From NCBI GenBank assembly GCA_014728035.1, contig WJMJ01000078.1, positions 1 through 64,000 of the forward strand: 64,000 nt of DNA. The letters run 5' to 3'. The position numbers and the translations under genes were made by a program. The notes under the pieces were generated by a model that saw nothing but the letters and a program-made list of their open reading frames with translations, was not told the DNA's origin and made no database searches. Shown here one piece after another: positions 6,726-12,043 of the stretch (within the stretch, counting starts at the first letter, position 1; every line of letters begins with the position of its first letter). Source of the DNA: Promethearchaeota archaeon. GTDB lineage: Archaea > Asgardarchaeota > Thorarchaeia > Thorarchaeales > Thorarchaeaceae.

Positions 6726-9014
6726 TCATTGTCTAAGATAATATCGCCGGTTCATCTCTTGACCTAATCTGTTCAGAACTCGTCTATCAACTAATGCTAT
6801 ATTATCCATCATAATCAAAGCTCGAGTGACATTTGAGAAAATTGCATTTAGATATGGCTGTGCTTGAGATAGATTGGATTGTTCAACCATTTGAAGATAT
6901 GCTTCTGCAATTTTTGTAAGACCCAACCAATCCTCTGTCAAAATAAAATCAAATCGTGCGGGTACTTCTAATTTGGTTAGTTTTTCTTCACCCCAATCAA
7001 TCTCGGAATTGTAATGAGTTTGCAGGGAGAGAGCAAAACGTAATAGAATATTTGCCAAGGATCCAGATGTTGCAATTATGAATTCAGCGGATTCAGAATA
7101 ATCGGTTTCAACTCTTGATACAACATCAAATGCTTTTGCGGACTGATACAGGCCATTTGATAATTCGGAATAATCCTTATTCTCATAGAAGGCTTTTATG
7201 GTTCTAGCGAGTGTTGTCTGACCGAGCCAATAATGAGCCAACAAGTCATCAATTTCGTGAAGGGGTCTATCAACAGCATCATGAATAACAATACCCATTT
7301 GAAGTCGTACCGTTTCGAGATTCATTTTTGCTGTTGCCATAGATGATAGTAAATGGGCTACCTCAGAGAGATTTTCATCTTCATTCGATATTCTTTTTGC
7401 TTCATCCCGGAGGTTTTTCCAAGTTCGTTCAACATATGGAATCAGGAGAGATAATCCACGGATGAAGATAGCGTTGTTGTCTATTTGGTGATCAGAAAGC
7501 ATTCTGTTGAGATCATCAAATAATCGTAGCAGCCTCCTATCTAGTGTATTATTGTGCCTAAGAGTCAACCAGACAATATCATATGTTGCAATAGCTACCT
7601 CAACAAAAGCTCGTTTATCAGTAGGAAATAGAGGTACATATTGAGTAAGGATTTCTCTTAATTCTGCTTGATGACTTCCTTCACTCATTCGTAAATCCAA
7701 TAATCTCCTTCCAAGCTGTGTGCTAAGATATCCGATTTCTCCAATTGAGCCACCTTCACTCAAATCTTGTCGAATATCGATTGCTCTTTCAAAAGCTTCT
7801 AGTCCAATTGTCCAAAACTCATCAGATTCAGTAGACAAGCAAATCCAACCAATTGCATTCTCGGTTCTTGCTAGCTCAATACTAATGTCTCGATCGTATT
7901 TCTCTAATTCTACTAGCACAGATTTTGCACGAGACATAAACTCGATACTACGTGTCATACTCTCATGGTCCCCAAGCATTCCATAAGAGAAGCCAAGACA
8001 CACCAGACACTTGTAATGATTAAAGATTAGATTTGGATTAGATTCATCATGAACCTCATAGAATTTTAGAGATGATGATAGCCATTCAATGGCTTGGGGA
8101 ACACCTTCACGCCATCCGTTTGCAAGGATATTAGATCCAATCACTACACCAGCTAATGCTGCAAAATCTTCATCACAGTCAGTTGTTTCTATTGCATCTA
8201 AGCAAGCTTGAGATGCTTCTTGAGCAAGCGCACGAGCAGATTCATAGGGAATTGATTCATCACGTGTTTCATTTACGCTCAACTGAAGTAGGACTGATGC
8301 AATCAGGGCGGGATCATCTTTTTCCCGAACAGTCACCTCTAATTTCTTGAGAAGTGTCCGCGCATCATGATATAGACCTAACTCAGTGAGTACCAAGGAA
8401 GCGTTTAAACTGACTTCAATGTTCAAATCCAACAATCCAAGTTTCTTGGTATGGGAAATCAACGAGTTCAATAGAGCGTCAGCACAATCAAAAAGACCAA
8501 ACTCAATCAATTTCCAAGCTATTTGATGAGATTCATGTAATGTTAATTCGGAAGAGAACTTATGCCCACGGCTTAGTATTGCGTCAATGATAGCAATGGT
8601 TTGATCTGTCAGAAATGGTATCAATGGGCGAAGATTAAGTTTCAATGCATTATCCATTGCCATACCATATTCACCCATGATATCAAGCAATTGTGGAATT
8701 GCATACATATCGGGAAGAATATCCAATTCGTTCAGTCGATAGCCGCTTGTATATCGTGTATCAAGTAGTAACAAGAGTTCAGGTAGAACCCTATCTTCAC
8801 TAAAAGAAAGACGCACTACCAATTCAGTGAGTTTAGTATTTGCTACTTCAGGACGGCGAAGGATTATTTCTTCAATTACACGTGCGATTTCGAAATACAA
8901 CTCGGAGTCAGCTGATGCCCTGATACCCAGAGATTGTATTGTGGATAACCCATCATCAAGTGACATAGATGCATAGAGAATGTCTCTAATGGTTGCGTTA
9001 AGTGCTGACTCCAC
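6726..9014 (-). CDS. Large helical/TPR-like hypothetical protein
   Basis: 762-aa ORF, Leu/Ala/Glu-rich amphipathic helices, TPR-like ARTENAIGW...AFERAIDIRQDL. Confidence 0.6.
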   Translation of the reverse strand: MESALNATIRDILYASMSLDDGLSTIQSLGIRASADSELYFEIARVIEEIILRRPEVANTKLTELVVRLSFSEDRVLPELLLLLDTRYTSGYRLNELDILPDMYAIPQLLDIMGEYGMAMDNALKLNLRPLIPFLTDQTIAIIDAILSRGHKFSSELTLHESHQIAWKLIEFGLFDCADALLNSLISHTKKLGLLDLNIEVSLNASLVLTELGLYHDARTLLKKLEVTVREKDDPALIASVLLQLSVNETRDESIPYESARALAQEASQACLDAIETTDCDEDFAALAGVVIGSNILANGWREGVPQAIEWLSSSLKFYEVHDESNPNLIFNHYKCLVCLGFSYGMLGDHESMTRSIEFMSRAKSVLVELEKYDRDISIELARTENAIGWICLSTESDEFWTIGLEAFERAIDIRQDLSEGGSIGEIGYLSTQLGRRLLDLRMSEGSHQAELREILTQYVPLFPTDKRAFVEVAIATYDIVWLTLRHNNTLDRRLLRLFDDLNRMLSDHQIDNNAIFIRGLSLLIPYVERTWKNLRDEAKRISNEDENLSEVAHLLSSMATAKMNLETVRLQMGIVIHDAVDRPLHEIDDLLAHYWLGQTTLARTIKAFYENKDYSELSNGLYQSAKAFDVVSRVETDYSESAEFIIATSGSLANILLRFALSLQTHYNSEIDWGEEKLTKLEVPARFDFILTEDWLGLTKIAEAYLQMVEQSNLSQAQPYLNAIFSNVTRALIMMDNIALVDRRVLNRLGQEMNRRYYLRQ

Positions 9015-9068
9015 TTTTATTACTCCTCTCGGTCAACTTCTGAACACAATCATATGCCAATAAGTCTT

Positions 9069-9773
9069 TCATTTTGGCCCAATTACAAAAGGATGCCAAT
9101 CACGAGATGTGTCAGTGCCCCTCATACGATCCATTCTGACACAGAATTGATTGTCTTCTATCTTAAATCGAAGAACAGCATCGGCAAGGTAAGAAAAGGT
9201 GGCATATGTCTTCTCATCATGAACTCCTTCTTCAAGCACAAACATAATACTATGAGAGTTCTGAGTTACCCGACCACTTAGTCGCTGCATGGACCTCGGC
9301 ATTGTAGCAGGATTAGAATGAAGAATTAACGTGGATAGACTATCGACTACAACTCTTGCACAGACCAGTCCTTCTAGTGCATCAAATAAAATGATACCCA
9401 ACTCACTGATATCATCAATCTTGGATAGCGAATAAGAAGCTCCGGTATGGGGCGCTCCCATTCTTTCAGAATATCCATCGATGAAAATGAATTGACTGCT
9501 GAGTTCATACTCCTCAACCGACCAACCATGACGGCTCATATCATTTCGAACTACACGTGGAGATACATCAGTTGTAACGAAAACTGCTGGAAAACCCAGC
9601 TTCAATCCTTCTGCTAGAAAAGCTTCAGCATAAGTTGTTTTTCCAGAGCCTAGTGGGCCTAACAACATGTAAGATACCTGTGTCAGCTGGCCAAACTTAA
9701 CGAGATCACTAATCATAGGGTAAGCTATCGATTCGGGTCCAGTAGATACTGTTTGTGTCGCTTCTTTTTCCAC
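9069..9773 (-). CDS. Single-domain KaiC/RAD55-like ATPase (CII-like, lacks the catalytic EE)
   Basis: GPLGSGKT, FIDGYS, RVVVDSLS, FSYLADAVL, RMRGT. Confidence 0.85.
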   Translation of the reverse strand: MEKEATQTVSTGPESIAYPMISDLVKFGQLTQVSYMLLGPLGSGKTTYAEAFLAEGLKLGFPAVFVTTDVSPRVVRNDMSRHGWSVEEYELSSQFIFIDGYSERMGAPHTGASYSLSKIDDISELGIILFDALEGLVCARVVVDSLSTLILHSNPATMPRSMQRLSGRVTQNSHSIMFVLEEGVHDEKTYATFSYLADAVLRFKIEDNQFCVRMDRMRGTDTSRDWHPFVIGPK

Positions 9774-9794
9774 GTTAGCAACCTCATTGAAATA

Positions 9795-10870: not shown

Positions 10871-10952
10871 TCCTAGAACAGAATAACTTCAAATTCAATT
10901 CCAGAAAGAAATCACTTGAATCTTTTGAATAGGAAAATCTCATTGTTGAAAT

Positions 10953-11336
10953 CTATCTAGTACCAAGAATTCGACGAATTTTCGTTCCTGCTTTACCAAT
11001 TGGACGTGCATGATACCTAACATTTCGTGGCATTAAAGCGGCTAAAATTAATGGTTGAACCCCTTTTGCTGTGACTTTTTTAAATACTGCCTTCCCCTTA
11101 GAACAACGAACAGAGATATCTTTCAATTCTCCGAGAGCCAATTCATTTCGCATACGTTCAACGGATTCAGCTACATAACCAGACATAGCTGCAACGACTT
11201 CACGATTTGTCGTTGGAGATGCAGCTGACGCTAAAAGGAGGCCATCATCACGAGCCAAGATGGATGCAATGAAACCGCCCTCTTTGTTCATCTTTTCAAG
11301 TACTTCTGCCAAGGCTCGGTAGTCAGGTCTTTCCAT
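10953..11336 (-). CDS. Roadblock/LC7 (MglB-like) protein
   Basis: GFIASILARDDGLLLAS, VAAMS; alpha-beta-beta-alpha-beta-beta-beta-alpha pattern. Confidence 0.85.
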   Translation of the reverse strand: MERPDYRALAEVLEKMNKEGGFIASILARDDGLLLASAASPTTNREVVAAMSGYVAESVERMRNELALGELKDISVRCSKGKAVFKKVTAKGVQPLILAALMPRNVRYHARPIGKAGTKIRRILGTR

Positions 11337-11491
11337 GTGATTACCCCTAGACTTCTAGTCACATTCTCGATTGCGCAATTCCTTATTAAATCATAGCCTT
11401 AGTCATTCTATAGAAATAAGAGATAAAAAGACCACCTACAGTATTATTTTAAGTATTAACCTCCATTAGACGTTAATACGAGGGATGGAAT

Positions 11492-12043
11492 ATGTCTGCA
11501 GAATATCGGTTCAAAATTGTTATGCTAGGAGACGGTGCTGTAGGTAAGACTGCACTTACAACTCGATTCACACAAGATCATTTTGAAACTGATTACAAAC
11601 GAACAATTGGTAGCGATTTTGCAGTGAAAAGGCTCGAAGTGGAAGAACGAAACGCCAATGTCACATTGCAGGTGTGGGATTTAGCAGGACAAAAGAGATT
11701 TGAAATCGTTCGACAGTCATTCTATCGAGGAGCTAGGGGAGGATTGTTGGTGTATGATGTCACAAGAAGAAGAACATTCATGCATTTAGATGGATGGAAA
11801 GATGAAGCTTATGAAAATGTAGGTAAAGAAATTCCTTTAGTGATAGTAGCCAACAAAGTAGACCTTGAAGATGCCAGAGTTGTAACAACAGAACAAGGTC
11901 AAGCCTATGCCGAGGAGCATGGCTTTCTCTATGCAGAGTCAAGTGCACTTACTGGAGAAAACGTTGAAGAAGCCTACAAAAAACTGTGTACAGTTATGAT
12001 AGACACTTCAAAAGATAAGAAAGACTCGAAAACCATGATCTAG
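11492..12043 (+). CDS. Rab-like small GTPase
   Basis: GDGAVGKT, TIGSDF, WDLAGQ, FYRGA, ANKVD, ESSA; no C-terminal prenylation Cys. Confidence 0.93.
   Translation: MSAEYRFKIVMLGDGAVGKTALTTRFTQDHFETDYKRTIGSDFAVKRLEVEERNANVTLQVWDLAGQKRFEIVRQSFYRGARGGLLVYDVTRRRTFMHLDGWKDEAYENVGKEIPLVIVANKVDLEDARVVTTEQGQAYAEEHGFLYAESSALTGENVEEAYKKLCTVMIDTSKDKKDSKTMI

Follow-up and report, generated by a model that had tools for sequence, protein, structure and literature searches.

The window analyzed here (the whole stretch of 64,000 nucleotides of a Thorarchaeota contig, from a source genome of 4.33 Mb in 173 contigs) contains a predicted operon in which a thioredoxin gene and two genes for KaiC-family ATPases follow a roadblock gene and precede a gene for a large TPR-type protein, with the gene of a Rab-like small GTPase lying divergently beside them. 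On balance, and judging from sequence, we think that this locus is a conserved Asgard signaling operon, in which a KaiC-type hub sensing ATP and redox state would be coupled to a small-GTPase switch; we hold this reading with moderate confidence. The gene arrangement is not due to chance, since it is invariant in about 60 species-level genomes of Thorarchaeota, and its thioredoxin/KaiC core is older than this group. Families were assigned with Pfam and NCBIfam profiles at their gathering cut-offs, and solved relatives were found with HMMER/phmmer. The features of the locus are as follows.

11492..12043, + strand: Rab-like small GTPase, orthologue of Thor-Rab (PDB 7EZB); Pfam Ras, 178 bits
11337..11491, no strand: divergent intergenic region of 155 bp between the GTPase and roadblock genes; read from the sequence
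10953..11336, - strand: roadblock/LC7 protein of 127 amino acids, first gene of the operon; Pfam Robl_LC7, 29 bits
10544..10870, - strand: small thioredoxin of the MJ0307/Thioredoxin_3 type, with CAFC and a cis-Pro loop; Pfam and NCBIfam
9795..10544, - strand: KaiC-a, single-domain CI-like KaiC ATPase of 249 amino acids; Pfam KaiC, 234 bits
9069..9773, - strand: KaiC-b, single-domain KaiC paralogue of 234 amino acids; Pfam KaiC, 95.6 bits
6726..9014, - strand: all-helical TPR-type solenoid of 762 amino acids, last gene of the operon; AlphaFold2 (AF2) and Foldseek, without a Pfam match

The initial annotation of this DNA had described five co-oriented genes (roadblock, thioredoxin, KaiC-a, KaiC-b and TPR-like) with the GTPase gene divergent from them, and the open reading frames (ORFs) are indeed arranged in this way. 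The motifs that it had quoted, CAFC, VTLEESP, EAFLAS, VTTDVSP and FSYLAD, are all present in them. The GTPase gene begins 155 bp from the start of the roadblock gene. This spacer is A/T-rich, carries a TATA-like TTTAATAA about 45 nt upstream of the roadblock ATG and presumably holds putative promoters of both genes. Within the operon, the stop codon of the thioredoxin gene and the start codon of KaiC-a share one base (TAATG), and the other gaps measure 82 nt (roadblock to thioredoxin), 21 nt (KaiC-a to KaiC-b) and 54 nt (KaiC-b to the TPR gene). The translational coupling of thioredoxin and KaiC-a proposed from the window can be extended to the group, because 39 of 59 Thorarchaeota loci have an overlap of 4 nt between the two genes and another 8 an overlap of 1 nt; the gap between KaiC-a and KaiC-b has a median of 24 nt in these loci.

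The same order, with the Rab gene divergent from roadblock, thioredoxin, KaiC-a, KaiC-b and TPR, and then a convergent paralogue of EF-2, was found in 20 fetched relatives as well as in some 60 named species genomes of Thorarchaeota, wherever the contig extends far enough. An orthologue of KaiC-b was detected in 22 of the 24 genomes of this family and in the single genome of the second Thorarchaeales family. In this second family the Rab gene is turned round, so that Rab, roadblock, thioredoxin, KaiC-a and KaiC-b lie on one strand; the TPR gene is absent there and was found only in Thorarchaeaceae. Just outside the unit, a WD40 gene and the gene of a 409-residue HEAT-like protein (13320-14549 in the window) are variably present, while the unit itself is constant. 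Each of these two genes is missing from some Thorarchaeota genomes, and we therefore do not count them among the core parts.

The thioredoxin/KaiC-a pair also exists outside Thorarchaeota. By the criterion of E < 1e-22, Thorarchaeales alone have true orthologues of the thioredoxin, in 55 of 59 genomes of one family and in the single genome (1/1) of the other, and a word-based homologue search likewise returned Thorarchaeota orthologues only. Yet three other Asgard genomes, two complete genomes of Atabeyarchaeia (CP147779 and CP147780) and one metagenome-assembled genome (MAG) labelled Heimdallarchaeota, have a thioredoxin of 33 to 35% identity directly upstream of a KaiC-a-like gene of 38 to 41% identity. 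When an independent member of the family (P0132) was compared with 400 Asgard genomes, it matched at E <= 1e-11 only thioredoxins that are linked to KaiC, from Thorarchaeales, Atabeyarchaeia and the Heimdall-labelled MAG, each with a KaiC-a-like gene immediately downstream. The KaiC-linked thioredoxins thus form one clade. In the Heimdall-labelled MAG, the order is a thioredoxin-like copy with CxxS, then the thioredoxin, KaiC-a and a KaiC-b-like gene; the CxxS gene lies at L035:8173-8526, directly upstream of the KaiC-linked thioredoxin. Single-protein scans with the nearest thioredoxins from outside Thorarchaeota (P0125, P0126, P0130 and P0138) gave one unrelated bacterial locus (L105) or nothing.

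The Atabeyarchaeia loci place the pair among parts of another kind. The order there is a 152-residue longin protein, the thioredoxin, a single KaiC and a 179-residue GTPase (L033:7402-9714 in CP147779, and the same in L034). The best families and solved relatives of this GTPase are Gtr1/RagA, and it has no C-terminal roadblock domain of the Rag type. The 152-residue protein has a predicted beta-beta-alpha-beta-beta-beta-alpha fold (predicted local distance difference test score, pLDDT, of 74). Its VIA matches include a GATOR1 chain (Z 12.1 over 125 residues, 2.9 A), a Lokiarchaeota longin (Z 12.0) and a chain of the SEA complex (Z 11.5); we take the GATOR1 and SEA chains to be the Nprl2 and Npr2 subunits. 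Its look-alikes according to a language model, NPR2, C9orf72, DENND11 and folliculin, agree with a longin fold, and the predicted structure thus identifies it as an Nprl2-like longin. We also looked for a roadblock upstream of the Atabeyarchaeia thioredoxin and rejected it: with hhalign, three small proteins gave probabilities of at most 2% against the alignment of Thorarchaeota roadblocks, and one of the three is the longin, in place of a roadblock. In Atabeyarchaeia-1 the row is preceded by proteins of 139 and 100 residues without a Pfam match, the shorter of which looks helix-turn-helix-like by eye. From the sequences, then, the thioredoxin-KaiC pair keeps company with small-GTPase parts in two classes, which differ both in the GTPase family and in the fold of the regulator. 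The link between roadblock and GTPase drawn in the initial annotation is accordingly kept across Thorarchaeota and has its parallel in Atabeyarchaeia, with a longin and a Rag-like GTPase.

A further Asgard family has related thioredoxin-like genes beside Ras-family GTPases, with no KaiC detected, and some of the copies lack CxxC. At L038:6000-7686, three thioredoxin-like genes in tandem, whose ends overlap or abut, come after a Ras-family GTPase; copies one and two are without CxxC and have their best score on the KaiB model (20 to 22 bits). At L039:6703-8112, a 116-residue protein, a thioredoxin and a GTPase stand in a row. The profile of the KaiC-linked clade also matches three long proteins (P0122, P0127 and P0129) of 907 to 1741 residues, which contain 6 to 11 thioredoxin-like repeats.

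What kind of thioredoxin is it? The initial annotation had taken it for a KaiB-like protein, which the comparison with family models does not bear out. It scores 28.8 bits on Pfam Thioredoxin (cut-off 23.5), 28.6 bits on Thioredoxin_3 (cut-off 24.8) and 52 bits on its best family, the NCBIfam MJ0307-family thioredoxin, all above the 21.5 bits that it reaches on KaiB (PF07689, cut-off 27), where only profile positions 15-55 are covered. Because 52 bits is below the equivalog cut-off of 92.75, we regard it as a relative of MJ0307 and not as its equivalog. Among solved relatives MJ0307 itself (1FO5) ranks first, in an alignment that spans the active site and the VPT loop, and the segment that had been thought to parallel KaiB aligns residue for residue with the ordinary MJ0307 stretch from the active site to the cis-proline. 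No KaiB is found among the best 60 listed solved relatives. A scan of the whole source genome gave no KaiB over the cut-off, with a score of 21.2 bits for the thioredoxin. Weak matches to the KaiB model do occur in 15 of 16 members of the family. The same model scores 31.6 bits on another Asgard thioredoxin that has no KaiC neighbor, and it gives sub-cut-off matches in genomes free of Kai such as Methanocaldococcus jannaschii, and in three other control genomes. KaiB is not known to be a redox protein or to have a redox CxxC site. In the KaiC-linked thioredoxins, C-x-F-C and the cis-proline of ALP are invariant (24/24, from three Asgard classes), and CAFC is present in 61 of 62 Thorarchaeota loci. 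Its sequence thus marks this protein as a redox-type thioredoxin, not a KaiB. As to its start, the longest ORF begins at a GTG within an AGGAG motif resembling a Shine-Dalgarno sequence (window 10859-10876, - strand); translation may instead begin at the GTG of codon 4, whose spacing of 8 nt from AGGAG is better, and this would give a protein of 105 rather than 108 residues.

The two KaiC proteins differ in what they have kept. KaiC-a is CI-like: its match to a solved KaiC (8zn5) reaches 179 bits for the CI half and 80 bits for CII, and it also matches PH0186 (2zts, 169 bits) and PH0284 (2dr3, 132 bits) of Pyrococcus. It belongs to the KaiC family of ATPase domains (PF06745) by score, Walker A and B, Glu pair and Arg finger, and its motifs are complete (Walker A GKAGTGKS, the Glu pair in LEES, Walker B VVIDTLS and a KLRG finger), with the catalytic EE kept in 58 of 59 orthologues. 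It has a long loop at the position of the KaiC B-loop and no cysteine at all. At the position of S431/T432 of CII it has F-L, or A-F in an alternative register, and thus no Ser/Thr. KaiC-b is also a member of PF06745, with Walker A, Walker B and an RMRG finger, from which the Glu pair is gone. The P-loop GPLGSGKT is retained, and all 55 orthologues scored have D-V in place of EE (TTDVSP), so that the loss of the catalytic Glu read from the window extends to all orthologues that could be scored. With a P-loop and without the catalytic Glu, KaiC-b is predicted to bind ATP, probably without hydrolyzing it.

These data bear on the proposal that KaiC-a and KaiC-b are the CI and CII halves of a split KaiC. 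The part concerning KaiC-a stands. KaiC-b is not CII-like: its best solved relative is PH0284 (2dr3, 80 bits), and in phmmer it aligns to full-length KaiC in a single stretch that is always in the CI half (for example 8zn5 residues 36-235). The SYLAD of KaiC-b had been placed at the CII phosphosites, and this match holds to within one residue only, with S-Y on S431-T432 in an Asp-anchored alignment and Y on S431 in a transitive HMMER alignment. The S-Y dyad is kept in 54 of 55 Thorarchaeota orthologues. It is not invariant: one genus has A-Y, the second Thorarchaeales family has S-F, and the Heimdall-labelled copy has no such dyad. Neither protein has the makeup of a bona fide circadian KaiC, since each has one domain and the phosphosite Ser/Thr and the Glu never occur in the same domain; the NCBIfam model of circadian KaiC gave a score of 202 against a cut-off of 408. 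We found no two-domain (CI + CII) KaiC in the source genome. The pair therefore consists of a predicted active ATPase and a nucleotide-binding, probably non-hydrolyzing paralogue; it is not a KaiC divided between two genes. The two proteins could form a mixed ring in which three sites are active, or two stacked rings.

The GTPase of the window can be connected with a protein of solved structure. Its best solved relative is 7ezb_A ("Thorarchaeota Rab"; 293 bits over residues 1-178), and the syntenic gene of SMTZ1-45 (contig LRSL01000056.1, locus L061 3766-4314) is 100% identical to 7EZB. The shared genomic position and the high score indicate that the window GTPase is the orthologue of Thor-Rab. 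The structure of Thor-Rab is Rab/Ras-like, nearer to the Rab and Ras proteins of eukaryotes than to MglA, and its intrinsic GTPase is slow, with a rate like that of Rab11B (PMC10933270). The same study equated Arg37 of Thor-Rab with the intrinsic arginine finger of MglA and found other Thorarchaeota Rabs to lack it. In the window GTPase, Arg37 is kept before the Thr of switch I, and 48 of the 49 orthologues that could be scored carry the motif YKRT. The window's second Rab, which shares 42% identity with the first, has no such Arg. The GTPase has no C-terminal prenylation Cys and a single conserved Cys, C166 (18 of 19 orthologues). KaiC and thioredoxin are not mentioned in the Thor-Rab study, which reports that in strain MK-D1 the GTPase genes generally lie outside operons with roadblock or longin genes, making their regulators hard to assign (PMC10933270).

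The roadblock protein scores 29 bits on Robl_LC7 (PF03259, cut-off 23), and its best solved relatives are the Asgard roadblocks 7F8M and 7YH1, followed by LAMTOR2. It differs from the crystallized Thorarchaeota roadblock, and its single Cys, C78, is kept in 20 of 21 orthologues. The 762-residue protein has no match in Pfam, the TPR models included, and is the fastest-evolving protein of the operon (38 to 80% identity). That it is TPR-like, as the initial annotation had it, is upheld by structure prediction: AF2, given 19 orthologues as the alignment, predicts 33 helices with a pLDDT of 84.7, and Foldseek relates the model to the TPR regions of Ctr9, Ski3, IFT-A and LGN (E 1e-5 to 1e-3), with a TM-score of up to 0.67 on the LGN target.

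Around these genes, an EF-2-like GTPase paralogue of 693 residues (4643-6724, + strand) is convergent with the TPR gene, with 1 nt between their ends, and its position is constant in all Thorarchaeales genomes examined, including the family without the TPR gene. Beside the Rab gene, at 12048-15131 of the window, are a WD40 propeller, the 409-residue protein (no Pfam match) and the second Rab-like GTPase. An anti-phage defense system was also considered and discarded, as the PADLOC models gave only a trivial P-loop match.

How could these parts work together? We propose that KaiC-a and KaiC-b would form a mixed or stacked ring in which ATP is hydrolyzed at the KaiC-a sites only. The thioredoxin would be the dedicated partner of this ring, its dithiol/disulfide state serving as the redox input. 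It could act by altered binding to KaiC-a, or on the single conserved Cys of the roadblock or the GTPase. The roadblock would act on Thor-Rab as MglB acts on MglA, and the TPR protein would scaffold the complex. As a net result, the switching of the Rab-like GTPase between on and off would be tied to the cell's energy and redox state. Several points weigh against this proposal and should temper it. All its functional steps are inferred from gene order and motifs. A census of the cysteines of the orthologues revealed no conserved one in KaiC-a or KaiC-b, so the thioredoxin cannot regulate either by disulfide reduction. It would then have to act through its own redox-dependent binding or on Cys targets in the roadblock and the Rab protein, where the conserved cysteines (20/21 and 18/19) are candidate thiol targets. 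At two Thorarchaeota loci no Rab adjoins the operon, and no GTPase was seen among the neighboring ORFs that were read in the Heimdall-labelled MAG. The thioredoxin-linked KaiC of Atabeyarchaeia is not clearly a unique orthologue of KaiC-a, as its paralogues score nearly as well and, in one genome, better. Finally, synteny within Thorarchaeota is just as strong for PolB, the EF-2 paralogue and the second Rab, and is therefore by itself no proof of function.

This last point could be taken further: the GTPase and roadblock genes may lie beside the thioredoxin and KaiC genes merely by inherited gene order, without functional coupling. The presumably unrelated PolB and EF-2 paralogue are just as syntenic in Thorarchaeaceae, and the GTPase genes of MK-D1 generally do not share operons with regulators (PMC10933270). 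We nevertheless find mere inheritance quite improbable, since the link outlives rearrangement (the genes diverge in one family and run the same way in the other), recurs in Atabeyarchaeia with another GTPase family and a longin replacing the roadblock, and concerns a unit that stays constant while the genes just outside it vary. A coupling might also exist on the GTPase side alone, where the thioredoxin would control the redox state of C78 of the roadblock and C166 of Thor-Rab, for example in an intermolecular disulfide, and the KaiC pair would be a separate ATP-driven part. That these cysteines are kept in 20 of 21 orthologues of the roadblock and in 18 of 19 of the Rab fits this idea, as do the related thioredoxin-like genes that accompany small GTPases, with no KaiC detected, in a further Asgard family. 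It remains doubtful in our eyes: the tightest and most conserved coupling is that of the thioredoxin with KaiC-a, whose codons overlap in three Asgard classes, and the Heimdall-labelled MAG combines the thioredoxin with a KaiC pair and no GTPase nearby.

Other explanations concern the thioredoxin and the KaiC proteins themselves. Fold-switched KaiB and the N-terminal domain of SasA have a thioredoxin fold and bind the CI half of KaiC. The thioredoxin could likewise be a structural adaptor of the KaiB/SasA type that sits on the B-loop of the CI-like KaiC-a and recruits outputs, its redox chemistry being irrelevant. This precedent, the presence of 5jwo among the solved matches of KaiC-a, the long loop at the B-loop position, the lack of conserved Cys in both KaiC proteins and the existence of related copies without CxxC (the Heimdall-labelled CxxS copy, P0149 and two of the three tandem copies beside a GTPase) are all consistent with an adaptor. 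Two Cys and a cis-Pro that are invariant (24/24), with CAFC in 61 of 62 Thorarchaeota loci, are nonetheless hard to explain without redox chemistry, and the KaiB score is below the cut-off, with a model that scores as well on a thioredoxin not linked to KaiC; we consider an adaptor of this kind unlikely. Far less credible is a split CI/CII KaiC working as an hourglass or oscillator, with KaiC-b phosphorylated at SY and a KaiB-like partner. It could draw on the CI-like KaiC-a, on an S-Y dyad within one residue of the phosphosite in 54 of 55 Thorarchaeota orthologues and on the weak KaiB match of the thioredoxin. But KaiC-b aligns to the CI half only, with PH0284 as its nearest solved relative, and is without the catalytic Glu required for KaiC autokinase activity; the dyad reads AY in one genus and SF in the second family, and the Heimdall copy has none; the source genome has neither a KaiB over the cut-off nor a two-domain KaiC; and the Atabeyarchaeia module has one KaiC. 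The initial annotation had left room for a timer. KaiA, a bona fide KaiB and a two-domain KaiC are all missing, KaiC-a has no phosphosite Ser/Thr, and there is no evidence for a timer or a clock.

A signaling operon that links a KaiC-type hub to a GTPase switch would matter for the study of Asgard archaea, which have many eukaryote-like small GTPases, almost none of them matched to a regulator. Here, the one Thorarchaeota Rab that has been crystallized and had its GTPase activity measured has fixed neighbors across the species examined, which are candidates to be tested as its GTPase-activating protein, guanine nucleotide exchange factor or effector. The locus also suggests that KaiC-family ATPases, which have been proposed to be archaeal signaling hubs, feed into G-protein switches. 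A literature search that included roadblock proteins and Asgard archaea, with the 2017 mBio survey of KaiC outside its coverage, returned no description of a link between thioredoxin, KaiC and GTPases.

Among known systems, the archaeal KaiC-like signal transduction hubs, which include inactivated KaiC (iKaiC) (Makarova, Galperin and Koonin, mBio 2017, as presented in PMC5847659), offer a close parallel. As far as that presentation goes, they share with our locus single-domain KaiC ATPases encoded beside putative input and output genes, and here too an active protein is paired with an impaired paralogue; our locus differs in that the P-loop of KaiC-b is retained and nothing but the catalytic Glu is gone, and in the partners, which are a redox thioredoxin, a roadblock protein, a scaffold of the TPR type and a Rab-like GTPase. 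The Pyrococcus horikoshii protein PH0284 (2dr3), nearest solved relative of KaiC-b, has E-E in the alignment where KaiC-b has D-V. With the cyanobacterial KaiB-KaiC and SasA systems the locus has in common a gene for a thioredoxin-fold protein directly ahead of the KaiC closest to CI. Unlike them, it has an MJ0307-type CxFC thioredoxin below the KaiB cut-off and single-domain KaiC proteins; KaiA and a conserved Ser/Thr phosphosite are lacking, and there is no evidence of a rhythm.

On the GTPase side, the nearest comparison is the MglA/MglB polarity switch of Myxococcus xanthus and Thermus thermophilus, where a small GTPase also adjoins a roadblock; the Arg that precedes the Thr of switch I in Thor-Rab has been equated with the intrinsic arginine finger of MglA (PMC10933270). 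In our case, however, the roadblock gene is in a predicted operon with the thioredoxin, KaiC and TPR genes and not with the GTPase gene, and structurally Thor-Rab comes nearest to eukaryotic Rab/Ras, not to MglA (PMC10933270). The regulators of Rag GTPases (Ragulator, the Nprl2/Nprl3 pair of GATOR1, and folliculin) differ in that no eukaryotic counterpart is known to come with KaiC or thioredoxin; the likeness is one of fold and family only, and the Atabeyarchaeia GTPase is without the C-terminal roadblock domain of Rag. What they share with the Asgard loci is the company of parts: the thioredoxin and KaiC of Atabeyarchaeia lie between an Nprl2-like longin and a Gtr1/RagA-like G domain, and the Thorarchaeota pair follows a roadblock that has LAMTOR2 among its solved relatives. 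It is tempting, though speculative and in our view improbable, to see in the KaiC ring with its dedicated redox thioredoxin an ancestral Asgard input device for Rab- and Rag-like GTPase switches, which would read ATP and redox state and set the nucleotide state of the GTPase through roadblock or longin partners. If this were true, the device would be a prokaryotic forerunner, in its logic, of nutrient sensing of the Ragulator/GATOR type.

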